Part shown: piece by piece, positions 6,935 through 52,491 of the stretch | Layout: each line of letters opens with the position of its first letter | Position numbering within the stretch: the stretch's first letter is position 1 | NCBI GenBank assembly: GCA_964473735.1 | Contig: CAYYQD010000002.1 | Location: 4,966-68,965, forward strand | Direction: 5' to 3' | Length of the DNA: 64,000 bases | DNA from: an uncultured bacterium | GTDB lineage: Bacteria > Hydrothermota > Hydrothermia > LBFQ01 | Notes under the pieces: model-generated | What the model was told of the DNA's origin: nothing | The model's input: only the letters and a program-made list of their open reading frames with translations | The model's database searches: none | Made by a program: the position numbers and the translations under genes

Positions 6935-8912
<1,978 letters not shown>

Positions 8913-9890: not shown

Positions 9891-9913
9891 GAGAGGGTAT
9901 TCTACCGCCGGAT

Positions 9914-10903: not shown

Positions 10904-11085
10904 TACCGTGTTTCAACTACGATGGCCACCCTCCCCTTGTAGTACCCGCAGTGGGGACACGCGAAGTGGGGTGGCTTCGGCTTACCACAGGAAGGGCACG
11001 TTGACAGCGCAGGTTTCCGTACCTTCCAATGGGTCCTTCTCTTTCTTCCCCTCGTGGCTGACTGCCTTCTCCTCGGTGAAGTCAT
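10903..11085 (-). CDS. rpmF: 50S ribosomal protein L32
   Basis: The protein is 60 aa with PRRRQS...RKRR and a CPSCG...CPHCGYYKGR zinc ribbon. It overlaps the plsX start by 1 nt. Confidence 0.8.
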   Translation of the reverse strand: MTSPRRRQSATRGRKRRTHWKVRKPALSTCPSCGKPKPPHFACPHCGYYKGRVAIVVETR

Positions 11086-11099
11086 CCTTTACCTCCTTT

Positions 11100-11771
11100 C
11101 TACTTCGTCAAAGCTACGGCTTCCCTTATCTTCTCGGCAAAGAAGGGCTCGGGGTAAGCCCCCTCAAACTCAACTATGTCGTTTATGACGATCTTAGGCA
11201 CGGCGTGGACGTGGTACTGGTCGGCCCACTGGGGGTACTCCAGAGCCTCTATCATGTAGCCCCTGATGTGGGGGTTGGCGACGGCGAACCTGTGGGAGGT
11301 CAGTACCGCCCTCGGGCAATAGGGACACGTTGGGGTCACGAATACGTATATGAGCACGTCCTTGTCTATATCTTTGATCTGCTCCTCTATCTCGGGGGAA
11401 AGACCCGAGCGCCCGGTTGAAGCGAGGACTATGCTCTCTATGAAGGCGGAGAACTCGTACCCGGCGGGGATGCCGAAGTACCTCATCCCGAAGTCTATCG
11501 GTTCCCCGTCTTCCTGTTTCTGGAGGATGGCCAGGGCGGGAGCGTCGTGGATGGCGTACTTCTCGGCCTCGGCCTTGTCCGTGACGACGTTCTTGACCAC
11601 CACCTCTATCTTATCGGAGATCTCGGCCACCTCCTTAAGGAGCTTTTCCTCATCCTCGCAGTAATCACACCCTATGTTCTTCTTAAAAAACAGAAGAACG
11701 ACGGGCTTCTCAAGCTCCGACGCAAACTTTTGGCGCAAATACTCCTTATCTTCTTCCCTTAGAAAACCCAT
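11100..11771 (-). CDS. Glutaredoxin-like protein disulfide oxidoreductase (two thioredoxin-fold units)
   Basis: Two CxxC motifs (CDYC and CPYC) sit in a ~220-aa protein, like thermophile PDO/glutaredoxin-like proteins. Confidence 0.6.
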   Translation of the reverse strand: MGFLREEDKEYLRQKFASELEKPVVLLFFKKNIGCDYCEDEEKLLKEVAEISDKIEVVVKNVVTDKAEAEKYAIHDAPALAILQKQEDGEPIDFGMRYFGIPAGYEFSAFIESIVLASTGRSGLSPEIEEQIKDIDKDVLIYVFVTPTCPYCPRAVLTSHRFAVANPHIRGYMIEALEYPQWADQYHVHAVPKIVINDIVEFEGAYPEPFFAEKIREAVALTK

Positions 11772-11838
11772 AGCGCCCGCTATTATACTGTTGAAACGTA
11801 CCCGACTGCAGAGGACCCCCCACCTTTAAGATAACGGG

Positions 11839-12270
11839 GTGAGACTTCGTATTCTCCTGATGATGATGCCTTTGGGTCTTCTCTCCTGTGCGAAGAAGGT
11901 TCCACCGCCGGGTAAAGGCGAGTTTAGGGGTCCTAAGGTGCTCCTGTTTTTGCCGGAGGGTGGGGATACCGTACGGGATACCTTGAAGATCTACGTGTTC
12001 GCGGAGGATCCCTCCGGTCTGAGGGCCTTCACCGTCAGGAGGGGGAAAGAGGTCGTGGCTACGTTCCCAGTGAAGGGTAGGTCCTACTCCCTTGACACTT
12101 TTGTGATCCTTCCCCGTACCGGAGATACCCTCCTACCGGACACCTTAGAGATAGGGGCGACGGACAGGTGGGACAACTGGAGTGGGGTAAAAGTGGAGGT
12201 CTTTACGTATAAAGAAAGGAAAGACACGTTAAAAAACGGGAATAGAGACACGAGAAACACAGGAAAATAG
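11839..12270 (+). CDS. Hypothetical lipoprotein
   Basis: Signal peptide with lipobox (LGLLSCAK); 143 aa. Confidence 0.4.
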   Translation: MRLRILLMMMPLGLLSCAKKVPPPGKGEFRGPKVLLFLPEGGDTVRDTLKIYVFAEDPSGLRAFTVRRGKEVVATFPVKGRSYSLDTFVILPRTGDTLLPDTLEIGATDRWDNWSGVKVEVFTYKERKDTLKNGNRDTRNTGK

Positions 12271-12337
12271 AAGGTTTGCAATACTTATCGCATAAAATCC
12301 CCCCATGTCTGTAGAGCGCCCGTAGAATAAAAATAAC

Positions 12338-12637
12338 ATGACGGCGAAAGAGATAAAGGATAAGGCGATACTGGTTCTTATTCTGGACCTGCTTATCCCG
12401 GGTCTGGGGCACATCATAGCCTATCAGGAGATAGCGGAGGCCCTGAAGAGGACCGGTAAGGACCCCTCGGCCGACCCCGAAGCCGTAAAGAGGAACGGAA
12501 TAATCCAGCTCGTCCTGTACCTCGCCGGCTTTATCACCTGCGGTCTAACCTCCATAGTGGCGTGGATATGGGCCTTCATCATAGACACGCTCATGAAGTA
12601 CTACGGCGCGATGACGTCCGTACCGGAGGAGGGTTAG
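12338..12637 (+). CDS. Small hypothetical membrane protein
   Basis: The protein is 99 aa with two hydrophobic helices. Support is weak. Confidence 0.3.
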   Translation: MTAKEIKDKAILVLILDLLIPGLGHIIAYQEIAEALKRTGKDPSADPEAVKRNGIIQLVLYLAGFITCGLTSIVAWIWAFIIDTLMKYYGAMTSVPEEG

Positions 12638-13260: not shown

Positions 13261-15327
13261 ATGGAGAAGCTCTTTTACCCCGACAGCATCATCGTCTTCG
13301 GAGCATCGCCGCGCCCCGGAAACCTGGGTCGTGTGATAGTAGGCAACCTCCTCCGCTTCGGTTATCCCGGACGAATCTACATGTACTCCCCCCGTGGGGG
13401 TGTCCTCTACGGCCAGCAGATCATAAGCGACCTCAACGAGGTACCGCCGGGCATAGACCTGGCCGTCATAATAACCCCAGCCAACACCGTCCCCCACATC
13501 CTTGAAGTCTGCGGAAAGAAGGGGATAAAGCGTGTGGTGATAGAGTCAGCCGGTTTCGGCGAGTTCGCCGAGGAGAGGAGGGTGTTGGAGAGGCAGATGT
13601 TGGACATAGCCGAGGAGTACGGTATAAGGTTCGTCGGACCCAACGGCCTCGGCATAATCAACCTTGAGAAGGGGGTGGTCCTTCCCTTTACGGCCATGTA
13701 CCCGGAGACCACCAAGGCCGGTAACATCTCCATCCTCTCCCAGAGTGGAGGCATAGGTCTATCCTACATAGACCTGCTCTCCTTTGAGAATCTGGGGGTG
13801 AATAAGTTCGTGAGCCTCGGGAACAAGCTCCAGATGGACGAGAACGACTTCCTTGAGTACCTCAACGCCGACCCCTCCACCCGCATCGTCGGGATGTACC
13901 TTGAGGGTATAAAGGACGGGAGACGGTTCATGGAGGTGGGTCGGCACGTGACTAAACCCGTCATAATCCATAAGTCCAACACGGGTAAGTCCAGTCAGGG
14001 GATAGCCAAGTCCCATACGGCCTCCCTTGCCGTGGACGACCGCATAGTGGATGCGGCCACGAAGCAGTTAGGCTTCGTCCGGGTACATACCCTCCACGAC
14101 ATGATAAACGCCGCCAAGGCCTTCTCCCTCCCCCCCATGCGGGGGAACCGTCTGGCGATAATCTCCCGCTCAGGGGGGCACGCGGTCGTGGCGGCAGACG
14201 CCGTGGACGAGTACGGTTTTGAGCTGGTTCCCTTCTCCGAGCGTTTCCTCAAGGAGGTGAGAAAGCACTTCCGCGCCAACGTCATAAACCCCACCAACCC
14301 CCTTGACTTGGGCGATATGTTTGACTTCAACCTGTACGTAGCCGTGATAGAGCAGGCCTTAAAGGAGACCCAGCTGGACGGACTCGTATTCCTCCACGTC
14401 TATTCTCCCAATCAGGCAGACATATCCCGTCCTCTCATCCCCAAGATAAAGGCCCTGTCGGAGAAGTACGATAAGCCCATAGCCGTGGTGATCTTCAGTA
14501 CGCAGGAGGAGGTGGCCACCGTGAAGAAGATGTACGACTTCCCCCTCTTTGACGAACCGGGGGACGCCCTTAAGGCCTTAGCCGTGAGCAGGGACTACTA
14601 CATATACAAGCCCCGCTTCATGGACACCCACAACCCCGCCGTGATAGACACTTCCAGGGTGGCCGAGATATTAAAAGGGAAGGAGCAGCTGGACTTGGTG
14701 GATGCCCTGAGGCTGGTGGAGGCCATAGGTATAAAGGTGGCCCCGTACCGCTTCGTGCCGCTGGGTGAAGACCCCCTGAAGTACGCCTCCGACCTCACCT
14801 ATCCGCTGGCCGTGAAGATCGTAGCGGACGAGGGCATACACAAGACGGACGTGGGAGGGGTGGCCCTAAACGTTAAGGACGAGGAGATGCTCCTCAAACG
14901 GGTCAGGGAGATGGAGGAGAGTGCCAGAGCCTACGGCATAGACTTCAAGGGATTCCTCCTTCAGGAGATGGTCAGGAGCAGGAGGGAGCTCATAGTGGGG
15001 GCCAAGCTGGATCGCCTCTTCGGGCACGTGGTTCTCTTCGGACTGGGTGGCATAATGGTTGAGGTCTTCAAGGACGTGTCCTTAGGTGTGGTGCCCTTCG
15101 GGGAACCGTGGGCCGAGCACATGATAAAGAGCATAAAGGGGTACAACGTTCTTCAGGCCTTCAGGGACGAGCCCAGGGCGGATATACCCGCCATAAAAGA
15201 CGCCATACTGAAGGTGGCCAAGCTGGTTCAGAAGTTCCCACAGATAAAGGAGCTGGACATAAACCCCCTATTCGCCCTGCCGGAGGGCAAGGGGGTGGTG
15301 GCCGTGGATGCGAGAGTGGTGATTTAG
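13261..15327 (+). CDS. Acetyl-CoA synthetase (ADP-forming), fused alpha-beta; NDP-forming acyl-CoA synthetase family
   Basis: The N-terminal CoA-binding/succinyl-CoA-synthetase-like region reads IIVFGASPRPGNLG...AVIITPA. The C-terminal ATP-grasp part is present and the length is 688 aa. Confidence 0.8.
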   Translation: MEKLFYPDSIIVFGASPRPGNLGRVIVGNLLRFGYPGRIYMYSPRGGVLYGQQIISDLNEVPPGIDLAVIITPANTVPHILEVCGKKGIKRVVIESAGFGEFAEERRVLERQMLDIAEEYGIRFVGPNGLGIINLEKGVVLPFTAMYPETTKAGNISILSQSGGIGLSYIDLLSFENLGVNKFVSLGNKLQMDENDFLEYLNADPSTRIVGMYLEGIKDGRRFMEVGRHVTKPVIIHKSNTGKSSQGIAKSHTASLAVDDRIVDAATKQLGFVRVHTLHDMINAAKAFSLPPMRGNRLAIISRSGGHAVVAADAVDEYGFELVPFSERFLKEVRKHFRANVINPTNPLDLGDMFDFNLYVAVIEQALKETQLDGLVFLHVYSPNQADISRPLIPKIKALSEKYDKPIAVVIFSTQEEVATVKKMYDFPLFDEPGDALKALAVSRDYYIYKPRFMDTHNPAVIDTSRVAEILKGKEQLDLVDALRLVEAIGIKVAPYRFVPLGEDPLKYASDLTYPLAVKIVADEGIHKTDVGGVALNVKDEEMLLKRVREMEESARAYGIDFKGFLLQEMVRSRRELIVGAKLDRLFGHVVLFGLGGIMVEVFKDVSLGVVPFGEPWAEHMIKSIKGYNVLQAFRDEPRADIPAIKDAILKVAKLVQKFPQIKELDINPLFALPEGKGVVAVDARVVI

Positions 15328-15346: not shown

Positions 15347-16561
15347 ATGGAGAGGTACGACGCCGTAGTAGTCGGGGGAGGTCCCGCCGGCTCAATGGCC
15401 GCCCGCAGGTTGGCCGAGGGGGGAGCGAAGACCCTCCTCTTAGAGAAACGGCCCGAGTTCGGACAGGTCGTCCAGTGCGCCGAGGGAATATCCCACCAGT
15501 CTCTGACGCTCTACTTTGACGCCGACCCCAGATTCATAGCCTCCGTGATAGACGAGGCCCGCTTTTACTCGCCGGATGGGGACTTCTTCACCATCAGGAA
15601 GGAGAGGGTGGGGTACGTCCTTGAGAGGAAGATATTTGACAGGCACGTCGCTCAAACGGCCGCCGAGGCCGGGGCCGAGCTTCTAACCAAGGCCCACTTC
15701 ACGAAGCTTGAGAGAAAGGGGGAGGTGTGGCACGTGCGTTTCAAGTACGGGGGGAAGGAGGAGGTCGTGGAGACCCGCCTGATAATAGGCGCGGACGGTC
15801 CCGGCTCCAGCGTGGGGAAACAGGCCGGACTGAAGCTGGACCTCGCACCGGAGGACTACCACTACGCGGTTGAATACTTCTTAGTCCATCCGGCGGTTGA
15901 GGACGGGAGGATAGACTTCTTCGTGGGGGACTGGTGCTGCTGGAAGGGGTACGGATGGAGTTTCCCCAAGGGAGGACACTACGGAAACGTGGGGGTGGGC
16001 GTCGCCGTTCTACCGGAAGGGGAGTCGGCCGACCTCTACCTCAACCGCTTCGTCTCCCACTACTTTAAGGGGGCCCGGATAATGGGTAAGACCAGCAGCG
16101 TGGTGCCGGTCGGTGGCCACAGGATGCAGATCTACGGGGACGGCATAATGGTGGTGGGGGACGCCGCCCGCCTTGCCGAGCCCATCTCGGGGGGAGGGAT
16201 ACCGGCGGCCTTGATTTCCGGAAGCGTAGCCGGTGAGGTGGGGGCGAAGGCTTTAAGGGAGGGGGATCTGTCCGCCCGGAGGCTCAAGGAGTACCACGAC
16301 CGCTTCTGGGAGATAATGAACAGGAGGGAGTACGAGCTGGCCTACGAGATAAGGAGGGTCTTCCTGAAGATGGACGACGACGACCTTAGGTACATCTTCA
16401 CTAAGCTTAAGCCCCTGTTTGATGGGGTTGAGATAGACGAGATAGACGCCTTCAAGTGGGCCCGCTACATCTTCACCAAAGCGCCTGACCTTCTCCTATT
16501 CGCCGCCAAAAAGGCCGGACCCGCCTTCGTAGATTACCTCCGGAGGGCCGTGGGGTTATGA
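15347..16561 (+). CDS. Geranylgeranyl reductase family FAD-dependent oxidoreductase
   Basis: The FAD motif is YDAVVVGGGPAGSMAARRLAEGG. The length is 404 aa and the overall pattern is GGR-like. Confidence 0.75.
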   Translation: MERYDAVVVGGGPAGSMAARRLAEGGAKTLLLEKRPEFGQVVQCAEGISHQSLTLYFDADPRFIASVIDEARFYSPDGDFFTIRKERVGYVLERKIFDRHVAQTAAEAGAELLTKAHFTKLERKGEVWHVRFKYGGKEEVVETRLIIGADGPGSSVGKQAGLKLDLAPEDYHYAVEYFLVHPAVEDGRIDFFVGDWCCWKGYGWSFPKGGHYGNVGVGVAVLPEGESADLYLNRFVSHYFKGARIMGKTSSVVPVGGHRMQIYGDGIMVVGDAARLAEPISGGGIPAALISGSVAGEVGAKALREGDLSARRLKEYHDRFWEIMNRREYELAYEIRRVFLKMDDDDLRYIFTKLKPLFDGVEIDEIDAFKWARYIFTKAPDLLLFAAKKAGPAFVDYLRRAVGL

Positions 16562-17457
16562 TACCCGTACTTCTGGCGAAGTCCTATACCTCCCTGGAGG
16601 TCAGGCTTACGGAGATGTTGATAGGGAGGAGCGTGAGCGGATACGTCGCCTCGCGCAACGGGAGGTTGTTTGACGAGGTCGGAGGGGTGATATACGTTAG
16701 CCGCCCTAACCTGTGGTTGATGTTCTCCCAGCCCTTCGCCGCCTGCTCCGACCTCAAGGTCCTGTACGGGGGACAACCGGCGGACGTGCGCCTTCTGGCC
16801 TCCCCCCTCCTTGAGGGGGACATAAACCTCCTGGTATGGAACAAGGACCTCCCCGACAGGGTGGCCGTGGTCAGGCTGAGGGCGACCTTAAAGACCGACA
16901 CCCTCATCTACAAGGTGCCCGGTTTTCGCCTGAAGGTGCGTAAGGGTAAGTACGTTGCCGAAGACACCGTTTCGGTCGTGTCCGTATCCGGCCCACGGAT
17001 AACGTGTGAGGAGAAGGAGGTACGCCTCTTCCATCTCGGTAGGGCAGTTAGGGACCCCACTTTTATATGGACGGGTAGGGAGATATGGGTTCTGGACGGC
17101 AGGGATCTATTCGCCTACAGGAAGGGAAAGCTGGTCCATCTTCGGTCCTTTAAGGGGGAAGTCGTACCTGCATCCACCGGAGAGGGAACCGTGGCCTTTT
17201 ACCTTCCTTACAGGGATGACCTCGTGGTACTGCGCTTTTCACCGGATTACTCCGGGGTTAAAACGGAGAGGGTCAAGAACGTCTCAAGGGACGTTGGTGG
17301 GGAGTTCGTATCCATACACACGGTGAGGGAGGTGAAGGAGGGAGAGCGCCCCGGAGGGTGGGTCATCGTTCTGGCCTTCAGGCAGGACGGCGCACTCAGG
17401 TACGTGAAGGTTAGACGGAAGGGGAGCGGGTACGTGGTTGAAAGTACCGACCGCTGA
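16558..17457 (+). CDS. Hypothetical protein
   Basis: This 299-aa ORF overlaps the stop of the upstream gene by 4 nt. No recognisable motif was found. Confidence 0.4.
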   Translation: MIPVLLAKSYTSLEVRLTEMLIGRSVSGYVASRNGRLFDEVGGVIYVSRPNLWLMFSQPFAACSDLKVLYGGQPADVRLLASPLLEGDINLLVWNKDLPDRVAVVRLRATLKTDTLIYKVPGFRLKVRKGKYVAEDTVSVVSVSGPRITCEEKEVRLFHLGRAVRDPTFIWTGREIWVLDGRDLFAYRKGKLVHLRSFKGEVVPASTGEGTVAFYLPYRDDLVVLRFSPDYSGVKTERVKNVSRDVGGEFVSIHTVREVKEGERPGGWVIVLAFRQDGALRYVKVRRKGSGYVVESTDR

Positions 17458-26278: not shown

Positions 26279-27598
26279 TTACTCCAGCTTCCACGCGAAG
26301 GATATTCCGAAGGAGTACGCGTACAGCTCTCTGGTGATAACCGGTACTGTAAAATCCACGTAGGGGTATCGGAGATGCCCGAAGGCCCGGGATACCTTAA
26401 AGGAGAAGACGAAGCTCTCCGACGCGTAGAATGCCCCTACCTGCCACCTTGATAACCTCTGCCCCCCGAAACGTAGGTCCAGTCCCGCGAAGCCTCCGTA
26501 CTCGTCCCCTACACGCCCAAAGGCCCATATCCCCTCACCGGAGAGTTTGCCGGAGGCGTACAGGTGCTCCCGGGTGTAGGATAGGGTGAGGAAGGGGTAC
26601 GTACCACCCTCTATCGGGAAGAGGGAAGAGCCCGTTGCGGAACCGCTGTCCCTCTTTACCGTATCTCTGATCAGACCTACCGTGGCGCTCCCCTTCAGGT
26701 AGACGGTGTCGGAGTCGGCCGAGTACTCGGCGTAGAGGTCGTTGTTAAAGAACTCCTTCCTCCTCCACTCCCCGCTCATAGCCGACACGTAGTTATAGTA
26801 GAGGGAGTCCGAAAATCTCAGGTTTAGGGTGCGGTAGGTTTCACCTCCCAGACTGACGGTCAGGGAGCCGAACTTTCGGCCAAAGCGGAGGCCCAGGTCG
26901 TAGAGTACGACAGGGTCCATCCTGAAACGGTAGTAGTACCTTCCCACGTCCTTCTCGGCCAGCTGGAAGGATAGGACGGCGTCGTTCTGTACCCCCTCAA
27001 CGGAGAAGGTGTCTTCGTATATCTGTCCCCCGACGTACCTTATCTCCCACCCCCCTTCACCGGCGAATCGGCTCGCACTCCCTCCGATGCTCAGAAAGTA
27101 GTCTCCGAACCTCCTGCCCAATCCGAAGGCCAGCGGTAGGTAAGAGAAGTCGGACTTAGAGGATACGACTGGCAGGACCGTCACGTTCCCCCTTATCCGC
27201 CATTTTACGGGAATCTTGGACTTGAGACCGTCCACATCAACGGGAAGCAGGGTATCCTCTAAGGTGGCGTCTATCCGACCCCATACCACCTCCGGAGGAT
27301 TCCCCTGAAGGGCGCTGGTACCTAACGGCGGGGTAGAAACGTGGACGGTGGGGAAGGATAGGTAGAGGAGCCAATCCGAAACCCAGCGCACGCTGGCGTG
27401 GAAGCGCATACCGTTGGAGATCTTGAAGGCTACGGGGAGGGCGTACTCCGGGGGCAACCCCTCCGGTCTGACGGTGGTCTGGAGGTTGTCTATCTGGGCG
27501 AAGTCAAACCCCCCCGACACGTAGGTGCTATCCTCCGGAAACTCGTAGGTAAATAGAGGTGGAGGGGGGAGGAAGTAAAACAGGGAAAACTCTACCAC
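26279..27598 (-). CDS. Hypothetical outer-membrane beta-barrel-like protein
   Basis: The protein is Gly/Tyr/Ser-rich with alternating beta patterns. The C-terminus ...SFAWKLE is aromatic, and the family is unknown. Confidence 0.35.
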   Translation of the reverse strand: MVEFSLFYFLPPPPLFTYEFPEDSTYVSGGFDFAQIDNLQTTVRPEGLPPEYALPVAFKISNGMRFHASVRWVSDWLLYLSFPTVHVSTPPLGTSALQGNPPEVVWGRIDATLEDTLLPVDVDGLKSKIPVKWRIRGNVTVLPVVSSKSDFSYLPLAFGLGRRFGDYFLSIGGSASRFAGEGGWEIRYVGGQIYEDTFSVEGVQNDAVLSFQLAEKDVGRYYYRFRMDPVVLYDLGLRFGRKFGSLTVSLGGETYRTLNLRFSDSLYYNYVSAMSGEWRRKEFFNNDLYAEYSADSDTVYLKGSATVGLIRDTVKRDSGSATGSSLFPIEGGTYPFLTLSYTREHLYASGKLSGEGIWAFGRVGDEYGGFAGLDLRFGGQRLSRWQVGAFYASESFVFSFKVSRAFGHLRYPYVDFTVPVITRELYAYSFGISFAWKLE

Positions 27599-33168: not shown

Positions 33169-33617
33169 TACTTACGGAGGCTGTAGCCTTAGGTCTGGTA
33201 TTTTCTCTCTACTCTTCGGAGGTCCTCGGCTTCGTGGCCGGGGGTCTGGTGGTACCGGGGTACTTCGTCGTAATATCCTCCCGTCCTCTGATGCTCCTGG
33301 CCACCCTTACGGCCGCCTTTCTGGCTTACCTCTTTCTGCGGGTCGTATCCTCCTATATGCTCCTCTACGGCCGCAGGAGGCTCCTGGTGGCAGTTCTCTT
33401 AGGTTTTCTGTTCTCCTACCTCAGTAAGTGGGTCGCTGTAGTTTATCCTTCCCCCCTCCTGTTCAAGCTTCAGGCCTTCGGCTTCGTAATCCCCGGCCTC
33501 TTAGCCTACTGGATGGACAAGCAGGGCGTACTCCCCACCCTGGGGATGCTCTTCGTGAATGTGGCCGTCGTAAGGCTGCTACTGATACTCCTGCACGGTG
33601 GGGAGGTGGTGCTATGA
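33165..33617 (+). CDS. pgsC: Poly-gamma-glutamate synthase membrane subunit PgsC/CapC
   Basis: CapC blocks are GLVVPGY, YGRRR and GFVIPGL...DKQG. The protein is 150 aa with four TM segments, and it overlaps pgsB by ATGA. Confidence 0.8.
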   Translation: MILTEAVALGLVFSLYSSEVLGFVAGGLVVPGYFVVISSRPLMLLATLTAAFLAYLFLRVVSSYMLLYGRRRLLVAVLLGFLFSYLSKWVAVVYPSPLLFKLQAFGFVIPGLLAYWMDKQGVLPTLGMLFVNVAVVRLLLILLHGGEVVL

Positions 33618-34744
33618 GGCTGTTTTTCAAGCACAAGTTGAACACGGCCGAGATGCTCTTCTTAGGGGTCGTGGGGGTGGTCGTGATAGCCCTGTCCGCC
33701 TTAGCGAAGACGGTCAGCAGGGCCCCCCTGTACGACGTCAAGTTGGAGGCGGCGAAACGTACCTTAAAGGCCTTTAAAGTACTGAAAGAGGAGAGGCTGC
33801 GCAGGGACATACCGATAGACTCGGTTAACGACCCAGCCCTCAGTGGCCTCATAGGGTACAAGGACTCACCCATAACCACGACCACGGGGGACCTATTGGC
33901 CAAGCAGATGACCGTAAACCCCAACTGGGCGGCTCTGGTGGTGGAACTACTCAGGAGAGCAGGGGTCAAAAAGGGCGACTACGTCGCCATCCACATGACG
34001 GGGTCCTTCCCCGCCCTGAATACGGCCACCCTGATAGCCGTTGAGACTTACGGGGCCGTCCCCGTGTGGGTCTCCTCCGCAGGATCCTCCAGCTGGGGGG
34101 CGAACGTGCCGGACTTCACCTGGCCGGATATGGAGAGGGTACTCCGGGATAGGGGGCTTATAAGGGGGAAATCGCTCCTCATGTCCATCGGGGGCAACAA
34201 CGACGTAGGGGCCGGATTACCGGAGGAGGGCAGGAGGATGCTGAAGGAGGCTATCAGGAGGAACGGCTACGACCTTCTGGAGGTCCTGCCGTTGCAGAGG
34301 TCCGTGGATGCGAAGTACTCGGTTCTAAAGAGGGCCGCCGGAGGCAGGATAAGGGCCTTCATAAACGTGGGTGGAGGCGTGGCCAGTCTGGGGTCCCACG
34401 AGGTAGGGGAGCTTTTGAAACCCGGTATAAACTGGCCCCGCACCTATACGGACCTATCCCTGTCGGACTATCCCGTTGAGGGTCTGGTGGCCAGGTTCTT
34501 GAAGGAGGGGGTGCCTGTCATACACCTGCTCCACGTAAGGTCCTTAGCGAAGAGGTACGGCCTACCTCTGGTGGTGGCGGCCATGCCGGAGGTGGGGGAG
34601 GGGAGGTTGTTCTTTGAAGAGAGGTACGTTCTGTGGGTTCAGGCCCTTCTGTTAGTGGGTTATCTCGCCGTGGTCTTTCTGGTCGTCAACGGGTACCTGG
34701 GTAGGTTATTCGGAAATCCAAGAAAGGAGGAAGAAACGGTATGA
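33614..34744 (+). CDS. Poly-gamma-glutamate system membrane protein in the PgsA position (not CapA-type)
   Basis: It overlaps pgsC by ATGA. It has N-terminal and C-terminal TM helices with a large extracytoplasmic domain between them. It lacks the CapA metallophosphatase GDxMxGR signature. The track start (33428) is internal to pgsC, so Met 33614 (MRLFFKHK) is proposed. Confidence 0.5.
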   Translation: MRLFFKHKLNTAEMLFLGVVGVVVIALSALAKTVSRAPLYDVKLEAAKRTLKAFKVLKEERLRRDIPIDSVNDPALSGLIGYKDSPITTTTGDLLAKQMTVNPNWAALVVELLRRAGVKKGDYVAIHMTGSFPALNTATLIAVETYGAVPVWVSSAGSSSWGANVPDFTWPDMERVLRDRGLIRGKSLLMSIGGNNDVGAGLPEEGRRMLKEAIRRNGYDLLEVLPLQRSVDAKYSVLKRAAGGRIRAFINVGGGVASLGSHEVGELLKPGINWPRTYTDLSLSDYPVEGLVARFLKEGVPVIHLLHVRSLAKRYGLPLVVAAMPEVGEGRLFFEERYVLWVQALLLVGYLAVVFLVVNGYLGRLFGNPRKEEETV

Positions 34745-36579
34745 AGAGGTACGTGTTTGCCGTCTTATCTCTGTTTCCTGTCTCCCTCATGGGGGCGTGG
34801 GTTGATATAACGGATATGGCCGAGGGTCCGAGGGCCTCGGTCGGAAAGAAGGAGTACCTGCAGCTCTCCCCTGCTACGCCCGTCCGCCTGAAGGTCAAGA
34901 GGAGCACGAACGTCAGGTGGAGGGTCCGCGCCGACAAGAGCGGTAGGCTCTGGTACATAAACCGCAGGAACGGAAAACGCAGGGACTTCCACTTCAGGGC
35001 TGGTAAGAGCGAGATAAGGATGCACCTCTCGGCCGGAATATACGACTTCTACGCCTCACCGGAGGCCGTAGCACGTGTCTATAGGTACGTGCGGCGTCGC
35101 TGGAAACCCGTTCAGCCGGAGGGGGGAGGGTACCCCGTCGTACTGTTGGTGGGTGAGAACCGCTACACCTACTACAGAACGGATAGGGGGGTAGTGGTGA
35201 AGGTCAAGGGACCGACCACGCTCCACCTGTTCTTCCGGGCCTTCATGAGAGGCGGAGGTAAGGTGAGAGCTAAGATCAAGGTCTATGAGGGGAAGAGGCT
35301 TATAAAGTCCGCCATAAAGACGCTTAGACCTTCCCGACGGGCGATATTCTTTACGGGGAAGGACAGCATAAAGGCTTCCGTACCCCTGAAACTGAGCCTG
35401 AAGGTATCCAAGGGACTCCATCGCTACAGGGTCGTGGTATCTGGCGTTGAGGGTGCGGTCAAGCCCTACGTGGATAAGGGGAAACGCAAGCGGAAAAGGG
35501 GAAGTCTATTCCACTTCACGGAGATGGGGAGGGTTGAATACGGCCCCATGTTGGCCTCTTTAAGCGCCTCTTACAGTGGAAAGCGCTACAGGAGTAAGAG
35601 ACACCGCAGGAGAAGGCTCCGCAGGAGGAGACACTTCAAACACCACTACGTGCGGGTAGTACCCTCCTTCGCGTACTTATCCTCTGACAACGTCTATCAC
35701 TACAGCCAACCCCAGATTGACACCTTCTACAGCGGTCTAAAGCCCTACAGGTACCCCGGAGTTGAGGGTATAGGGGACGGTATCTGGAGGGCGAGGCTGT
35801 CCTTCACTTACCTCTACCGCTGGAGGCGTAAGATTTCCTTAGGTCCCACCCTGTACTACGCCCTCTACAGGTACCTTCAGAACCAGCAGCTTAACCGCAG
35901 TCTGTACGGTATTTCTCTCGTGGGCAGGTTTTACGGACTGCGGGCGAGGGTATCCTACCTGAACATGCCCTTTTACGGTGTTAGACCGACTTACACAGGC
36001 GTACCTAAGACGTACGAACTTCTATCCTTCGCCTACAGCAGGACGGAGGTCTCCCTATCCTACACCTTGAAGCCCATTACCGTAAGGGGGGTCTACGGGT
36101 TCGGTAGGTACGACTTCAACCCCACCTTTGACCTGTACGACGCCCGGTTTCGCAGGGCAGGGGGTGGTATCACCTTCAGGTACTCCGTCTTCTCCTTAAA
36201 GGGAGACGTCCTCTTCGGTAAAGTGGAGGCTACGAACCTACCCGCCGGAGTGCCCAAGGATTGGTCCCACGACTACACCACCTTCAAGGTCGCTCTTCTC
36301 CTGTCCCTTCCCTACGTTTCCCCTTACATCTCCTACAGGCATACGGTAAGAAACTACACGACCACGGACGTAGCCGACTCCCACTACGGCAGAGAGGATA
36401 AAGAGAGTGACCTCGTTCTGGGTGTCTCTGGAGAGCTCCCGTACGTCAGGCCCTTCGTATCCTACAGGGTCAGGAGCCGTTCCACCACCTCTCCCACCCC
36501 TATCGTGGATGTCTTCAAGGACTACAGGGAGAACGTATTTACGGCCGGCATAAGGGTACCCCTGAAGTTCAGGTTCTGA
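34741..36579 (+). CDS. Secreted, highly basic putative outer-membrane beta-barrel protein co-transcribed with the pgs genes
   Basis: The signal peptide is MKRYVFAVLSLFPVSLMGA. The polybasic tracts are GKRKRKRG and KRYRSKRHRRRRLRRRRHFKHH. The C-terminal half has alternating aromatic/hydrophobic beta-strand patterns ending ...VPLKFRF. It overlaps the upstream gene by ATGA. Confidence 0.45.
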   Translation: MKRYVFAVLSLFPVSLMGAWVDITDMAEGPRASVGKKEYLQLSPATPVRLKVKRSTNVRWRVRADKSGRLWYINRRNGKRRDFHFRAGKSEIRMHLSAGIYDFYASPEAVARVYRYVRRRWKPVQPEGGGYPVVLLVGENRYTYYRTDRGVVVKVKGPTTLHLFFRAFMRGGGKVRAKIKVYEGKRLIKSAIKTLRPSRRAIFFTGKDSIKASVPLKLSLKVSKGLHRYRVVVSGVEGAVKPYVDKGKRKRKRGSLFHFTEMGRVEYGPMLASLSASYSGKRYRSKRHRRRRLRRRRHFKHHYVRVVPSFAYLSSDNVYHYSQPQIDTFYSGLKPYRYPGVEGIGDGIWRARLSFTYLYRWRRKISLGPTLYYALYRYLQNQQLNRSLYGISLVGRFYGLRARVSYLNMPFYGVRPTYTGVPKTYELLSFAYSRTEVSLSYTLKPITVRGVYGFGRYDFNPTFDLYDARFRRAGGGITFRYSVFSLKGDVLFGKVEATNLPAGVPKDWSHDYTTFKVALLLSLPYVSPYISYRHTVRNYTTTDVADSHYGREDKESDLVLGVSGELPYVRPFVSYRVRSRSTTSPTPIVDVFKDYRENVFTAGIRVPLKFRF

Positions 36580-47996: not shown

Positions 47997-48030
47997 AAAA
48001 AAAGGGGGGCGTACGCCCCCCTATTTCTGT
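47997..48030. terminator. Bidirectional rho-independent terminator between surA-like and porB
   Basis: The sequence is aaaaaaa-GGGGGGCGTACGCCCCCC-tatttctgt, a perfect 8-bp GC stem flanked by A-tracts and T-tracts. Confidence 0.75.
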
Positions 48031-48042
48031 GTAGCACCGTCC

Positions 48043-48990
48043 CTATATGGTGCTGCGCACCGTCCTTCTCGCCTCCTCGGGCAGGTAGCCGTGCGTGGCC
48101 TCGTGCTTTCTCACCAGACTCTCCCACTGGTGCTCAACGAACCTCTGCACGTACGAGAGCCTCTCGGGGTCCTTGAGAACGGGCCTGAACCTCCCCTGGA
48201 GCTTGAAGTACTCCTCAACCGGAAGGCCCTTAGGCCAGTGGGTTATGGTGTAAAGCTCTCCGTCCTCTATCTCGTAGAGGGGGAAGATCTTGGTCTCAAC
48301 GGCAAGACGGGCTATCCTGACCGAAAGGTGTGAGGCCATCTTCCACCCCGGAGGGCACGGTGAGAAGACGTGTATGAAGCGGAACCCCTTTATCTGGGAG
48401 GCCTTCTTCAGCTTGCTGATGAAGTCGTCCGGGAAGGCTATGCTGGCCGTGGCGGCGTAGGGTACCCTGTGAGCCGCCAGTATCTCCATCATGTTCTTCT
48501 TGGGCCTGTCCTCCGGCCTCTCGTCCGGCGTGGTGGTGGTCCATGCACCTACGGGCGTTGAGGAGGACCTCTGTATTCCCGTGTTCATGTAAGCCTCGTT
48601 GTCGTAGGTGACGTATATTATGTTCTCGTTCCTCTCGGCGGCTCCGGAGAGGGCCTGAAGACCTATGTCAAAGGTACCCCCGTCACCGGCCCACGCTACG
48701 ACGTTGACGTCGTGCATTCCCTTCATGTCAAGGGCGGCCCTTATACCGGTAGCGGCTATGGCCGCCGTCTCAAAGGCCGTGTGGAATACGGGTATCTGAA
48801 GGGCGTGCTGGGGCCATGCCCCGTCTATCACGCTCCAGCAGGATGCCGGTATCACGAATACCGTCTTAGGCCCTAAGGCCTTAAGCGCCAGACGTGCGGC
48901 TATGGTGGCACCGCACCCCTGACACGCCAAATGACCCGAATAGAGCAGGTCGTTCTCGTTGGGTTTTACCTCTACCCATGCCCAGCTCAT
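48043..48990 (-). CDS. porB: Pyruvate:ferredoxin oxidoreductase beta subunit (TPP-binding)
   Basis: The TPP motif is GDGGTFDIG...NEAYMNTG. The N-terminal Cys residues are CQGCG and the length is 315 aa. Confidence 0.85.
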   Translation of the reverse strand: MSWAWVEVKPNENDLLYSGHLACQGCGATIAARLALKALGPKTVFVIPASCWSVIDGAWPQHALQIPVFHTAFETAAIAATGIRAALDMKGMHDVNVVAWAGDGGTFDIGLQALSGAAERNENIIYVTYDNEAYMNTGIQRSSSTPVGAWTTTTPDERPEDRPKKNMMEILAAHRVPYAATASIAFPDDFISKLKKASQIKGFRFIHVFSPCPPGWKMASHLSVRIARLAVETKIFPLYEIEDGELYTITHWPKGLPVEEYFKLQGRFRPVLKDPERLSYVQRFVEHQWESLVRKHEATHGYLPEEARRTVRSTI

Positions 48991-50162
48991 ACTCTTACCC
49001 CCTTCCAGATTATGTTGCCTTCCATCTCCTCTCTCCCCTTCATATCCTCGTATATGTCTATGATGTCCTGCGGACGGATGTCCCTACCTCCGAGCCCGGC
49101 AACGTAGCCGAAGATGGGAGGCCTATCCTTGGCACCGTACATGGCCGCCTTGGTCTCCATATAGAAGATGCCGGAGTGACCGAAGGAGACGTTCCTGTCT
49201 ATCACGGCCACCTTCTTACGACCGCTAAGTACCCTACGGACGTCCTCTACGGGGAAGGGCCTGAAGAGCTTTATCTTCATTATGCCCACCTTCTCACCCC
49301 GTTCGCGGAGCTTGGCCACGGCGTACTTGGCCGTAGTGGTGGTACTTCCGGCTAAGACGAGGACGTAGTCCGCATCGTCCAACATGAACTCCTCAACCGT
49401 ATCGTACTTACGACCGAACATGTCGGCGAAGAGGTCCGTCTCCTCCTTGAACACCTTCAGGGCCTCCTCGTGGGCCTTCTGGATGTTGTACCGGAACTCC
49501 ATGTAGTAGTCCGGACGGGCGAAGGCGCCTATGGCTCTGGGATCGTCAAAGTTTATGGCGTTGGGATGGTGGTAGGGTGGCAGGAACTCGTCCACCAGCT
49601 CCTGCGGGTAGACCTCAACCGGCTCGGAGGTGTGCGAGAGGATAAAGGCGTCCAGTACCAGCATGGTGGGTAGATACACCCTCTCCGCTATCTTGAAGGC
49701 TAAGATAGTGCTGTCAAGGACCTCCTGGTTGGACTCGTTGTATATCTGGATCCAGCCCGTATCCCTCTGGGCTAAGGAGTCCGTCTGCTCCGTCCAGATG
49801 TTCCACGATGGGGCCAGAGCCCTGTTCACGTTGGCCAGAACTACGGGTGCCCTCGCCCCAACTGCCCAGTGCAACATCTCGTGCATCAGTGCCAGCCCCT
49901 GCGAGGCCGTAGCCGTAAAGGACCTCGCTCCAGCAAGAGAGGAAGCTATGACGGCGGATATGGCGGAGTGCTCGGATTCAACGGTGATAAACCGGGCCTT
50001 GAGCTCCCCTGTAGCCGTCATGTCGGCCAGCTTCTCCGCGATCGTGGTCTGGGGGGTGATGGGGTAGGCGGAGATCACCTCCACCCTCGCCAGCTTTACG
50101 CCGTACGCTACGGCGTAGTTCCCCTTTAAAACCGTGTAGGTGCTTTGTTCCAGCAGTTTCAT
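48987..50162 (-). CDS. porA: Pyruvate:ferredoxin oxidoreductase alpha subunit
   Basis: The protein is 391 aa with a PorA-like pattern (YPITPQT...ESEHSA). Confidence 0.85.
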   Translation of the reverse strand: MKLLEQSTYTVLKGNYAVAYGVKLARVEVISAYPITPQTTIAEKLADMTATGELKARFITVESEHSAISAVIASSLAGARSFTATASQGLALMHEMLHWAVGARAPVVLANVNRALAPSWNIWTEQTDSLAQRDTGWIQIYNESNQEVLDSTILAFKIAERVYLPTMLVLDAFILSHTSEPVEVYPQELVDEFLPPYHHPNAINFDDPRAIGAFARPDYYMEFRYNIQKAHEEALKVFKEETDLFADMFGRKYDTVEEFMLDDADYVLVLAGSTTTTAKYAVAKLRERGEKVGIMKIKLFRPFPVEDVRRVLSGRKKVAVIDRNVSFGHSGIFYMETKAAMYGAKDRPPIFGYVAGLGGRDIRPQDIIDIYEDMKGREEMEGNIIWKGVRV

Positions 50163-50187: not shown

Positions 50188-51822
50188 TCAAAACTCCCTT
50201 TCCCTCACCATGTCTATAACACCCCTCGGACACTCCTCGGAGCACACGCCGCACCCCTTGCAGTACTCGTAATCCACCTTCGGGCGGCCGTGGACCCACT
50301 TTATGGTGTAGTCGGGACAGAAGACGTAACAGTTCCCGCAGGCGTTACAGAAGCCGCAGGAGAAACACCTCTCCGCCTCCTTCATGGCCAGCTCCTGCGT
50401 GTAGCCTATGACCTCCTCCCGGGTTAGGGACCTAACCCTCTCATCCACGGAGAGCTTCAGCTCCGGCACCCTCGGGGCGGTCGGGAAGTAGTCGGTTATT
50501 ATCCTGTCGTAGCCCACCACCTCCGGGAAGGTCTCGGGGGTGTAGGTCCTGCCCTTCAGGTAGGCGTCTATTGAGGCCGCAGCCACACGTCCGGAGTATA
50601 CGATATTCACCACGGGCGAGGGCCCGAGTACGACCTCTCCGGCGGCGAAGACCCCCTCAAGGGGTGTGGTGGAGTCCTTACGGTTGGCTTTCACGTACCC
50701 ACCTTCGGTTATCTCCTCGGGGAGGAAGGAGGTTTCAACCTTCCCCTCGTAGGCATAAAAGACCTCGTTGAAGGTCATTCCGTGCTCCGTACCGGCCACC
50801 GGCTCCCCGTCCTCGGATTCGGATACGGTGAGGTCAACCATACCGTTCACCCTTTGCGCCTTCACAGGCATCTCACCGAAGAAGAACTTTACGCCCTCCT
50901 CCTCGGCCATGGCAAGGGTCTGCCTCTCGTGGAAGGGTACGGTTATCTTGCCGGAGGGGTATATGACGAAGGGGTCGGCCCCTAATCTCTTGAGGACGCG
51001 GGCGACCTCAAAGGCCGTGCCTCCGTCCCCGACCACGGCCACCTTGCCGGAGATCTCCGGTCTCTTGCCGGCCCGGACGTCTTTGAGCAGGTCCCTACCG
51101 GACTTCAGTACCTCTGCACCGGGGAAGGTGGGCTTCACCTCCGCGGAAGAGCCGTGGGCTAAGAGAACGGCGTCGTACTTCGTCCTCAACTCGTCAAAGG
51201 GTACGTCCTTACCCACCTCAACGCCGGTTACGAACTTCACTCCCATCTTCTCAAGGGCGGCCACCTCCGCCTCAAGGACGGCTAAGGGCAGCCTGTACTC
51301 GGGAACGGCGTAGCGCAGGTACCCCCCAACCTCGGGGTTGCGGTCGTACACCACCACCTCGTGCCCCTTGGACCTGAGGTAGTAGGCCGCCGAAAGGCCA
51401 GCGAGCCCGCCGCCGACTATGGCCACCCTCTTGCCCGTCTCTCTCCTTGGAGGCTTACCCTTCTTGTCAAGGTAGTAATCCCCCACGAACCTCTCCAGCT
51501 GCTTTATAGAGATGGGCTCGTCGTACCTCCCTCTGTTGCAGGAGAGCTCACACGGAGCGTGGCACAGACGACCGGTTATGGAGGGGAAGGGGTTGTTCCT
51601 GTGGAGCAGGTTGGCGGCCATATCCAGATCCCCCTTGACTAAGGAGTCTATGAAGTGGGGTATGAGGACCTTCGTGGGGCAGGTCATGGTACAGGGGGCG
51701 GACTTGTTCTTTATCACCGGCTTATAGCTCCTCCACCCACCCGTAGGGTTCTCAAGGGTGGTGGTCAGGGTAATAGGAGATATGGGAAGCTCCGAAGCCT
51801 TGAAGTCGTACTTCTTGGCCAT
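50188..51822 (-). CDS. GltD/NfnB-like NAD(P)H-FAD oxidoreductase fused to a PorD-like 2x[4Fe-4S] ferredoxin domain, in the POR delta-subunit position
   Basis: The N-terminus has Fe-S cysteines. It is followed by FAD (VAIVGGGLAGLSAAYYL) and NAD(P)H (KVAVVGDGGTAFEVAR) dinucleotide motifs. The C-terminus is CFSCGFCNACGNCYVFCP...CKGCGVCSEECP. It sits between porG and porA. Confidence 0.7.
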   Translation of the reverse strand: MAKKYDFKASELPISPITLTTTLENPTGGWRSYKPVIKNKSAPCTMTCPTKVLIPHFIDSLVKGDLDMAANLLHRNNPFPSITGRLCHAPCELSCNRGRYDEPISIKQLERFVGDYYLDKKGKPPRRETGKRVAIVGGGLAGLSAAYYLRSKGHEVVVYDRNPEVGGYLRYAVPEYRLPLAVLEAEVAALEKMGVKFVTGVEVGKDVPFDELRTKYDAVLLAHGSSAEVKPTFPGAEVLKSGRDLLKDVRAGKRPEISGKVAVVGDGGTAFEVARVLKRLGADPFVIYPSGKITVPFHERQTLAMAEEEGVKFFFGEMPVKAQRVNGMVDLTVSESEDGEPVAGTEHGMTFNEVFYAYEGKVETSFLPEEITEGGYVKANRKDSTTPLEGVFAAGEVVLGPSPVVNIVYSGRVAAASIDAYLKGRTYTPETFPEVVGYDRIITDYFPTAPRVPELKLSVDERVRSLTREEVIGYTQELAMKEAERCFSCGFCNACGNCYVFCPDYTIKWVHGRPKVDYEYCKGCGVCSEECPRGVIDMVREREF

Positions 51823-51823
51823 C

Positions 51824-52405
51824 TTACACCTCCTGAGGTATCAGAATCTTAGTGCTCTCGTAGGCCTCGCGCGCGGCCGCGGCGTTCTCCTCCGGTTTTA
51901 TGGGTACGCCCTCCTTTATGGCCGCCAGGAGGTTCTCAAGGGAAGGCTGTCCGAAGGCCCGGGCGAAGGCGCCCAGGATGGCCGTATTCACTATGGGGGT
52001 CATCTTGCTACCGAGACGGTGTTTTATGGCTATGGACGTAGCATCCACCGTAGCCACCCTGTACGTAGGCGGTATTCCCACCTCCTCAACTATCTCCTCC
52101 GGGGACTGCGGGGTATTGACCACGATCCAGCCTCCCGGTTTCAGGCCCTCCATGACGTTTACGGCCGTAAGGAGGGTGGGATCTAACACGATTATGTGGT
52201 CCGGCTCGTAGATGTTGGTACGTACGAAGAGGCTTCCGGGGTCCCCAACGCGCACGAAAGCGGCGACCGGAGCGCCGCGCCTCTCCACACCAAAGTGGGG
52301 GAAAGACTGTATGTACTTCCCCTCTTTAAAAAAGGCTTGAGCAAGGATCTCGGAGGCTACTACGGCCCCCTGTCCTCCACGACCGTGGATCCTGATTTCT
52401 ATCAT
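51824..52405 (-). CDS. porG: Pyruvate:ferredoxin oxidoreductase gamma subunit
   Basis: The PorG-like N-terminus is IEIRIHGRGGQGAVVASEILA; the length is 193 aa. Confidence 0.8.
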   Translation of the reverse strand: MIEIRIHGRGGQGAVVASEILAQAFFKEGKYIQSFPHFGVERRGAPVAAFVRVGDPGSLFVRTNIYEPDHIIVLDPTLLTAVNVMEGLKPGGWIVVNTPQSPEEIVEEVGIPPTYRVATVDATSIAIKHRLGSKMTPIVNTAILGAFARAFGQPSLENLLAAIKEGVPIKPEENAAAAREAYESTKILIPQEV

Positions 52406-52491
52406 ACTCGTTCCTCCTTGGTCTCATATTATACACTGGTAAGGCACCCCGTTTCCGGACGCATGCAGTACGCTCCTCCGTAAAATACGGA

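Follow-up and report, generated by a model that had tools for sequence, protein, structure and literature searches.

Several 2-oxoacid:ferredoxin oxidoreductase (OFOR)-type enzymes are linked to nicotinamide adenine dinucleotide (phosphate), NAD(P)+, including the pyruvate:NADP+ oxidoreductase (PNO) of Euglena and Cryptosporidium, in which a cytochrome-P450-reductase-type domain carrying flavin mononucleotide and flavin adenine dinucleotide (FAD) is fused to a single-chain pyruvate:ferredoxin oxidoreductase (PFOR), and the 2-oxoglutarate:NADP+ oxidoreductase (KorABC) and phenylglyoxylate:NAD+ oxidoreductase (PadEFGHI) of Azoarcus evansii, in which the OFOR core is wired to a flavoprotein supplied as an extra, separate subunit. 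In the four-subunit PFOR, electrons leave the enzyme by way of a medial and a distal cluster, both housed in the delta subunit, PorD (PMC12337175). Canonical NfnB, the large subunit of NfnAB (NfnSL), carries a contiguous RCx2Cx4Cx3CP motif, followed by GRVC..C...C and a glutamate ligand (PMC6405883, PMC12221290). The bifurcating enzymes can be told by Arg333 and by an nfnA gene upstream, whereas NfnB homologues without NfnA have a single function, as ferredoxin:NADP+ oxidoreductases (PMC12221290). In StnC, the permuted GltD domain binds NADPH and holds FAD together with two [4Fe-4S] clusters, and electrons move through it singly to the next cluster, with no bifurcation (PMC10482914). Here, we analyze a 64-kb stretch of contig CAYYQD010000002.1 from an uncultured Hydrothermota bacterium (hereafter, the window), in which the delta position of a por operon is occupied by a 544-amino-acid protein, X, that appears to combine the two types of protein, with a permuted NfnB/GltD-type flavoprotein lodged inside a PorD.

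The por operon and the architecture of its delta-position protein

The gene layout described in the first-pass annotation was recovered, namely, an open reading frame (ORF) of 544 codons in the delta position of porG-X-porA-porB, flanked by por domains, and all the motifs it had listed for the protein (GGGLAGLSAA, GKVAVVGDGGTAFEVAR, and CFSCGFCNACGNCYVFCP...CKGCGVCSEECP) were found in X. The genes and the predicted parts of X are as follows:

51824–52405, minus strand: porG, gamma subunit of a 2-oxoacid oxidoreductase of the pyruvate/2-ketoisovalerate (POR/VOR) type, 193 amino acids (PF01558, 130.6 bits; TIGR02175 PorC_KorC, 204 bits, cut-off 81)
50188–51822, minus strand: X, delta position, between porG and porA, 544 amino acids
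51703–51822, minus strand: X residues 1–40, putative PorD N-terminal arm (motif N.TGGWR..(K/R)PV at residues ~20–40; alignment to 9bt4_G)
51448–51702, minus strand: X residues 41–125, putative Fe-S helical domain of the NfnB/GltD module (Fer4_20, 75 bits; C44, C48, C87, C91, C95, E110)
50533–51447, minus strand: X residues 126–430, putative FAD and NAD(P)-type Rossmann domains (Pyr_redox_2, 91 bits; G137xG139xxG142, R177, G265xG267xxA270)
50353–50532, minus strand: X residues 431–490, holding the putative relocated NfnB N-terminal segment (~449–490), which ends R-C486-x-x-C489-G at the permutation junction
50191–50352, minus strand: X residues 491–544, putative PorD 2x[4Fe-4S] domain (C492, C495, C498, C502; C521, C524, C527, C531)
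48987–50162, minus strand: porA, alpha subunit, 391 amino acids (POR_N, 254.8 bits; PFOR_II, 109.9 bits)
48043–48990, minus strand: porB, beta subunit, 315 amino acids, with a thiamine pyrophosphate (TPP) site and the proximal [4Fe-4S] cluster (TPP_enzyme_C, 75 bits)

Pfam resolved X into Fer4_20 (residues 40–119), Pyr_redox_2 (132–406), and a 4Fe-4S dicluster domain (492–538). Residues 492–541 scored 71.3 bits on the PorD_KorD model TIGR02179, above its cut-off of 60.05, and the C-terminal domain scored 68 bits on PorD_Arch. A pseudo-PorD construct, in which residues 1–43 of X were joined to residues 484–544, aligned with residues 12–84 of the 85-residue solved PorD of Methanosarcina acetivorans (9bt4_G), arm included (E = 1.1e-14), and scored 57.8 bits compared to 46.3 bits for the C-terminal domain alone; the arm aligned to residues 12–28 of 9bt4_G. 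In the set of 132 family members on which all conservation counts are based, T27 and P35 of the arm never vary, W30 occurs in 131 of the sequences and G28 in 130, and the 8 PorD cysteines, arranged in 2 CxxCxxCxxxCP motifs, are kept throughout. The AlphaFold model assigns residues 1–19 a predicted local distance difference test (pLDDT) score below 50, and confidence is low over the first ~25 residues of the arm, as expected if the arm folds on the partner subunits (PorA/PorB).

With the arm at the N-terminus and the ferredoxin domain at the C-terminus, the flavoprotein (residues 41–490) lies inserted inside PorD, and we accordingly read X, from its alignments, as a PorD with a whole NfnB/GltD-type flavoprotein nested between arm and ferredoxin domain. 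X has in common with 9bt4_G the arm, the 2 CxxCxxCxxxCP motifs, the gamma-delta-alpha-beta operon position, and a TIGR02179 score above cut-off, whereas PorD measures ~85–105 (about 80–105) amino acids and X reaches 544 through an insertion of ~450 residues. The earlier description of the protein as an N-terminal GltD followed by a C-terminal PorD is borne out in that both are complete, but not in its topology, the first ~40 residues corresponding to the PorD arm and not to GltD.

The inserted module does not follow the canonical NfnB order. X splits the NfnB motif, with Cx3CP (44–49) located before the Rossmann domains and RCx2C (485–489) after them, the latter within an ‘EA.RC486xxC489G’ sequence that follows the flavoprotein invariantly in the X family. 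When the order was restored by placing residues 440–490 ahead of residues 41–430 (de-permuted construct), X aligned contiguously from the N-termini of NfnB and GltD, with a gain of about 20–33 bits:

PfNfnI-B (5jca_L), residues 7–471: 206.9 bits de-permuted, 174.3 bits in native order
TmNfnB (4ylf_B), residues 12–462: 207.5 bits de-permuted, 178.5 bits in native order
Azospirillum brasilense GltD (6s6s_G), residues 9–476: 167.4 bits de-permuted, 147.2 bits in native order

The alignment of the moved segment (‘prvpelklsvdervrsltreevigytqelamkeaercfscg’) is striking. By contrast, StnC (8oh5_C) and the NfnA subunit of Bfu-type NfnABC (9bov_A, 9n5u_A) showed no gain from de-permutation, and the moved segment matched their own residues ~525–569, indicating that these proteins share the permutation with X. 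On this basis, the flavoprotein module of X is best described as a circularly permuted NfnB/GltD. It also follows from the de-permutation alignments that C486 and C489, which the first-pass annotation had attributed to PorD, correspond to the ‘RCxxC’ ligands of NfnB.

The predicted structure agrees with this assignment. The AlphaFold model of X has a mean pLDDT of 90.6 and a predicted template modeling score (pTM) of 0.88, with a confident linker and a pLDDT of 90–95 over the relocated segment. Its best fold matches are Bfu-type NfnA and StnC (query-normalized TM-score, TMq, of 0.76–0.77 over ~600 columns, including the Fe-S domain after the flavoprotein), compared to a TMq of ~0.65 over ~425 columns for canonical NfnB and GltD. 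Likewise, the flavoprotein aligns to NfnB, GltD, StnC, and Bfu-type NfnA at E = 1e-42 to 1e-75, and the best sequence matches of X are the Bfu-type StnC/NfnA proteins (E = 1e-71 to 1e-76).

The residues that coordinate the cofactors in PfNfnI-B have the following equivalents in X, with their conservation in the family:

Cys52, 56, 101, 107, and 111, cluster ligands: C44, C48, C87, C91, and C95 (132/132)
Cys42 and 45, cluster ligands: C486 and C489 (132/132)
Glu126, proximal-cluster ligand: E110 (130/132)
Arg201, next to FAD (N5): R177 (119/132)

All 15 cysteines of X are invariant in the 132 sequences, both dinucleotide motifs (GxGxxG for FAD and, as the second, GxGxxA) are retained in the family, and porB carries normal cluster and TPP motifs. 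Taken together, the module ligands, the 8 PorD cysteines, and the PorB motifs predict that each αβγδ unit would hold 5 [4Fe-4S] clusters, TPP, and FAD. C489 precedes C492 by only 3 residues, so that the distal cluster of the module and a PorD cluster must be neighbors, and the sequence itself thereby argues that the electron wire is continuous. The ligand at the position of E110 is Lys170 in the proximal cluster of StnC, and glutamate represents the NfnB-type low-potential solution (PMC10482914); a cluster of the glutamate type would be well matched to the electrons that a 2-oxoacid delivers, at about −500 mV.

The remaining subunits define the core of the enzyme. Pfam and NCBIfam models identify the 3 flanking genes as the gamma, alpha, and beta subunits of the pyruvate/2-ketoisovalerate OFOR branch, and the best solved relative of porA is the alpha subunit of the M. 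acetivorans PFOR (9bt4_B, 332.8 bits). However, the PorA_Arch equivalog was missed by porA (493 against a cut-off of 550) and the PorB equivalog PRK11865 by porB (371.7 against 405), whereas porB passed PRK11864 (410.3 against 405), a subfamily model named for the beta subunit of 3-methyl-2-oxobutanoate dehydrogenase (VOR). The substrate can therefore be assigned no finer than POR/VOR; the core is a member of that family, with pyruvate and branched-chain 2-oxoacids both candidate substrates, and the specificity for pyruvate assumed in the first-pass annotation is unproven. Membership in the phenylglyoxylate dehydrogenase (Pad) group was rejected, none of the 3 flanking subunits coming anywhere near the cut-offs of the Pad NCBIfam models. 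No other ferredoxin-motif ORF, porD, or second OFOR was found in the 64-kb window.

The 4 genes form a single, self-contained operon, in which porG and X are separated by 1 nt, the start of porB overlaps the stop of porA (ATGA), and a GGAGG ribosome-binding site stands ahead of each gene, with the upstream neighbor divergent and the downstream neighbor convergent.

Distribution, synteny, and described relatives

The first-pass annotation had itself raised the concern that the fusion might be an assembly or frameshift artefact joining separate genes, and this explanation now has a negligible probability. The exact protein is also present on a 77-kb ENA contig; its cluster at 90% identity comprises eight 544-amino-acid members from several sources, and 7 of the 9 members of the next cluster (79% identity) have the full 544 residues. 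Full-length cluster representatives (540–600 amino acids; 35%–92% identity to X) numbered more than 100 in the database search, and in total more than 130 full-length homologues with the same junctions were collected from Bacteria and Archaea. The named sources are WOR-3, which is also among those at ~38%–41% identity, Armatimonadota, Krumholzibacteria, Syntrophaceae, Acidimicrobiia, Burkholderiales, Bathyarchaeota, Lokiarchaeia, and Freyarchaeia, and the complete genome of the Asgard archaeon ‘Ca. Freyarchaeum deiterrae’ carries the same G-X-A-B operon. An artefactual fusion was thus ruled out by the independent assemblies, the homologue set, and the Asgard genome.

Some of the homologues carry a JGI label, either ‘2-oxoacid:acceptor oxidoreductase delta subunit’ or one naming a ‘GltD-like/PorD’ hybrid. 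The best NCBIfam match of X is a full-length model, NF009410 (PRK12771, ‘NAD(P)-binding protein’), aligned end to end (residues 23–541 of X with 29–565 of 566), from which it follows that the nested architecture is already implicit in annotation resources; by its score, X would be a divergent relative of that subfamily. No description or assay of a PorD-NfnB/GltD fusion was found in the open-access full-text literature, which is not proof of absence.

Linkage to por genes was assessed by a synteny scan of one genome per GTDB species, using an alignment of 24 sequences as the query, and 80 loci were analyzed. Matches extended from the arm through the ferredoxin domain in 49 loci, 38 of which have 2 or more adjacent por genes, in the order G-A-B-X (20 loci, mainly from Proteobacteria and Actinomycetota, including the cultured Sulfurisoma sediminicola), G-X-A-B as in the window (13), or others (5). 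The remaining 31 loci, StnC-like and others, matched only residues ~41–500, and 30 of these lack adjacent por genes.

Several loci deviate from these patterns. A stand-alone porD was seen in only one of the analyzed loci, L041, where an X-like gene (6001–7506) lies ~2 kb upstream of a classical porG-porD-porA-porB with its own porD (9603–12457), a possible intermediate or alternative arrangement. In 2 loci (L034:11448–12692 and L036:11547–12401), a second GltD/NfnB-like gene with 31%–34% identity to X residues ~42–423 is located 2–3 kb downstream of the nested-delta por operon. G-A-B-X loci (e.g., L018:4806–5058 and L006:4797–5057) display a constant gap of ~250 bp between the porA and porB matches, which could reflect a longer PorB N-terminus or an additional small ORF. 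Finally, a Cellulomonas metagenome-assembled genome (L058) and Actinotalea subterranea (L053) encode X-like proteins of ~625 amino acids (match 6001–7878; 29%–30% identity over residues 6–542); near the gene in L058, the opposite strand carries alpha and beta genes with a weak resemblance to POR, and the locus may be a KorABC-like system with a two-subunit OFOR core.

Among described proteins, NfnB (5jca_L, 4ylf_B) and GltD share with X the fold, the FAD site, the 7 cysteines and 1 glutamate for 2 [4Fe-4S] clusters, and the Arg201 equivalent, but in X the N-terminal ~45 residues with the first 2 cysteines follow the flavoprotein. Unlike NfnB, X has neither an NfnA partner nor Arg333, and its clade lacks the NADPH-contacting arginines. 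StnC of the Sporomusa StnABC complex and the NfnA of Bfu-type NfnABC are the closest to X in sequence and fold and have the same permuted order. Their GltD-like domain is also nested in a larger Fe-S protein, is followed by further [4Fe-4S] clusters, and binds a non-bifurcating FAD (PMC10482914). The host protein differs, however, being in their case NuoG/FdhF-like and bound to HydBC-like subunits, whereas in X it is PorD, and no HydBC-like genes were found within ±10 kb of X. The proximal-cluster ligand is Lys170 in StnC but an NfnB-like glutamate (E110) in X.

The Cac_0764-type [4Fe-4S]/FAD ferredoxin:NADP+ oxidoreductases resemble X in lacking NfnA and Arg333, and they share the reaction predicted for X, in which a low-potential Fe-S donor reduces NAD(P)+ (PMC12221290). 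They are, however, free-standing, non-permuted, and served by soluble ferredoxin, whereas the ‘ferredoxin’ of X is the covalently attached PorD domain. In ANME-1 HdrA paralogues, an NfnB-like module of ~500 amino acids is inserted into a ferredoxin domain, as in X, although the host there is a heterodisulfide reductase, with a function that is likewise only predicted (PMC9012536). Since NAD(P)+-linked OFORs and NfnB insertions are already known, a permuted NfnB nested in PorD introduces no categorically new principle.

Proposed reaction and competing explanations

We consider the X complex to be, with a probability of roughly 0.6, a 2-oxoacid:NAD(P)+ oxidoreductase of the non-bifurcating kind, in effect a PFOR into which a ferredoxin:NAD(P)+ oxidoreductase has been built covalently. 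The 2-oxoacid would be decarboxylated on TPP in PorA/PorB, and single electrons would travel from the PorB [4Fe-4S] cluster through the 2 PorD clusters to the distal cluster of the module (C44, C48, C486, C489), then to its proximal cluster (C87, C91, C95, E110) and FAD, which would gather 2 electrons and reduce the pyridine nucleotide. Overall, the complex would catalyze 2-oxoacid + CoA + NAD(P)+ → acyl-CoA + CO2 + NAD(P)H, with no bifurcation. The non-bifurcating character is suggested by the loss of Arg333, the equivalent of which is I, V, H, S, or L and in no case Arg among the 132 sequences (H298 in X), and by the lack of nfnA: the gene upstream of X is porG, and neither an nfnA-like gene in the operon nor an NfnA [2Fe-2S] motif in the 64-kb window was found. 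Direct exchange with NAD(P)(H), one of the options put forward in the first-pass annotation, is accordingly the most economical reading, and the alternative offered alongside it, bifurcation, is disfavored by the same 2 features.

The identity of the nucleotide is a separate question. The FAD site and the GxGxxA fold motif that the first-pass annotation had relied on are kept, but its assignment of an NAD(P)H site stands only in part, as NADPH is made doubtful by the absence of 3 arginine contacts: Arg253, Arg325, and Arg382, which contact NADP(H) in PfNfnI-B, are replaced in X by V229, by P289-S290, and by a deletion of the GEPDxSGRRRP loop, respectively. The X clade is characterized by V229 and ‘YP(S/T)(G/A)K’ and lacks the Arg-rich loop (11 residues deleted). 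The majority of the family looks NADPH-type, ‘YRR’ (Arg324/325) being present in 102 of the 132 sequences, the Arg253 equivalent in 79, and the ‘GEPDxSGRRRP’ loop (Arg382) in most. A third clade, of about 600 amino acids (P0075, P0084–P0092, P0100, P0103, P0104, and P0112), has ‘L(C/S)LE’ in place of ‘YRR’, an NADH-like acidic signature, and an altered Arg loop; at least 1 of its members (P0075) is longer by about 40 residues at the C-terminus. More than one switch of nucleotide specificity seems to have occurred in the nested-PorD family. Loss of arginines that bind the 2'-phosphate is the usual path from NADPH to NADH specificity, and the X clade probably switched away from NADPH, most simply to NADH. 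Without 2'-phosphate-type contacts, NAD+/NADH would be the more likely nucleotide.

Several observations weigh against the proposed reaction. X and about 16 close relatives lack all 3 NADP(H)-contacting arginines, and X has no acidic NADH-type residue after beta-2, so that the case for nucleotide use comes down to the GxGxxA fold, which is kept. Conservation is, moreover, lowest in the NAD(P) domain of X, with 57%–62% identity to its ~79%-identical relatives P0002 and P0003, compared to 76%–97% in the other regions. In addition, X scores 436.2 bits on NF009410, under the curated cut-off of 516; its assembly into PorABG is deduced from the arm, the ferredoxin domain, and synteny; and no biochemical data were found for any member of the nested-PorD family. 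Finally, reduction of NAD(P)+ by a low-potential donor would dissipate ~150–200 mV, which seems wasteful for a strict fermenter.

The divergence of the nucleotide-binding domain leads directly to an alternative that we regard as unlikely, namely, that the module in the X clade uses no NAD(P)(H) and either serves another acceptor (polysulfide or sulfur, as in SudA/NsoC, a disulfide, or an O2 sink) or is a mere Fe-S wire or structural element. The loss of the 3 NADP(H)-contact arginines together with the 11 residues of the Arg-rich loop is confined to the X clade and, with the divergence of the domain, would fit such a change. Yet G265xG267xxA270 and the Rossmann fold are kept at high pLDDT, and the disappearance of 2'-phosphate arginines is, as noted, what a change to NADH usually entails. 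Nor is constraint specifically relaxed, the ratio of NAD-domain to FAD-domain identity being 0.73 in the X clade and 0.74 in the YRR-bearing members and family-wide; decay of the NAD(P) domain specific to the X clade was rejected on these grounds. That X is no oxidoreductase subunit at all but a stand-alone ferredoxin:NAD(P)+ oxidoreductase (Fnor), co-transcribed with a three-subunit, delta-less OFOR, is somewhat more improbable. The Cac_0764-type NfnB homologues do act as soluble Fnor (PMC12221290), and in 20 loci X is placed after porB, outside the delta position, but the PorD-specific arm is near-invariant across phyla, the C-terminal domain passes the PorD_KorD cut-off, relatives without arm and PorD domain are not por-linked, and POR/VOR cores made up of gamma, alpha, and beta normally depend on delta to supply the medial and distal clusters (PMC12337175).

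About as improbable as a stand-alone enzyme is flavin-based bifurcation or confurcation, whereby NAD(P)H and a second partner would drive reductive carboxylation or a 2-oxoacid would reduce NAD(P)+ and a second acceptor. Such a mechanism could draw on the proximal cluster, which is NfnB-like rather than StnC-like in its glutamate ligand (PMC10482914), on the retained Arg201 equivalent R177, and on the extended NfnB-type N-terminal segment, which is kept at its relocated position. The missing Arg333 and nfnA, however, tell against it, no domain for a third partner is evident, and FAD is a non-bifurcating entry point in StnC and Bfu-type NfnA, which are the nearest solved relatives to share the permutation (PMC10482914). 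It is slightly less probable again that the nested module, by virtue of its Glu-ligated cluster and NfnB N-terminal segment, makes a bifurcating or confurcating 2-oxoacid oxidoreductase, which could operate as an NAD(P)H-assisted pyruvate synthase or split 2-oxoacid electrons between NAD(P)+ and ferredoxin; if true, this would be a new class of electron-bifurcating enzyme extending from soil bacteria to Asgard archaea. On its own, NAD(P)H lacks the reducing power to carboxylate acetyl-CoA reductively, and the NAD(P)H-driven, reversible pyruvate synthase suggested in the first-pass annotation would be thermodynamically unfavorable on established redox potentials. It would need bifurcation, which the evidence disfavors, leaving the non-bifurcating 2-oxoacid:NAD(P)+ oxidoreductase as the preferred explanation.

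Implications and genomic context

Metabolic models generally read por/vor genes as a source of reduced ferredoxin, and derive from it that the organism makes H2 or formate, conserves energy through Rnf, or carries out reductive carboxylation. If electrons are instead delivered to NAD(P)+, such conclusions would be wrong for every organism relying on the nested delta subunit, including Asgard archaea (Lokiarchaeia and Freyarchaeia), Bathyarchaeia, WOR-3, Acidobacteriota, Actinomycetota, and Proteobacteria. PorD here and the NuoG-like proteins of StnC/NfnA appear to have received one and the same permuted NfnB module, a clear case of modular redox evolution. A compact, self-contained 2-oxoacid:NAD(P)+ oxidoreductase could also serve pathway engineering, as separate PFOR and Fnor pairs are being engineered for ethanol production (PMC12221290).

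Two further features of the window bear on the operon and its possible role:

48003–48022, no strand: bidirectional intrinsic-terminator-like hairpin with a perfect 8-bp stem (7 G-C pairs) and flanking T-runs
13261–15327, plus strand: NDP-forming (ADP-forming) acyl-CoA synthetase, single chain, 688 amino acids (CoA_binding_2, Succ_CoA_lig, and ATP-grasp_5)

The ADP-forming acetyl-CoA synthetase that the first-pass annotation placed at 13261 is confirmed at the domain level. The gene fits a route from 2-oxoacid through acyl-CoA to ATP, and in combination with the X complex, 2-oxoacids would yield ATP and NAD(P)H. The hairpin lies between porB (stop codon at 48043–48045) and a convergent SurA-like gene that ends at 47981; the T-run was scored as sufficient by the scan on the minus strand, the plus-strand tail being weaker, and the hairpin looks like a shared terminator for both convergent genes that closes the por operon. 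At the other end, a perfect TATAAT hexamer is located at 52428–52433 on the minus strand, 22 nt 5' of the porG start codon and just before the porG GGAGG; the sigma-70 scan called no promoter at porG, as the −35 match beside the hexamer is missing.

No rRNA was found in the 64-kb window, but the SurA, LolA, and TonB-like neighbors point to a diderm-type bacterium as the host. For four ORFs of 299–612 amino acids (16558–17457, 26279–27598, 33428–34744, and 34741–36579), Pfam gave nothing at E ≤ 1e-5. A geranylgeranyl-reductase-like FAD protein (FAD_binding_3 and GGR_cat) is encoded at 15347–16561 on the plus strand, 20 nt 3' of the acyl-CoA synthetase gene, with which it may be co-transcribed.

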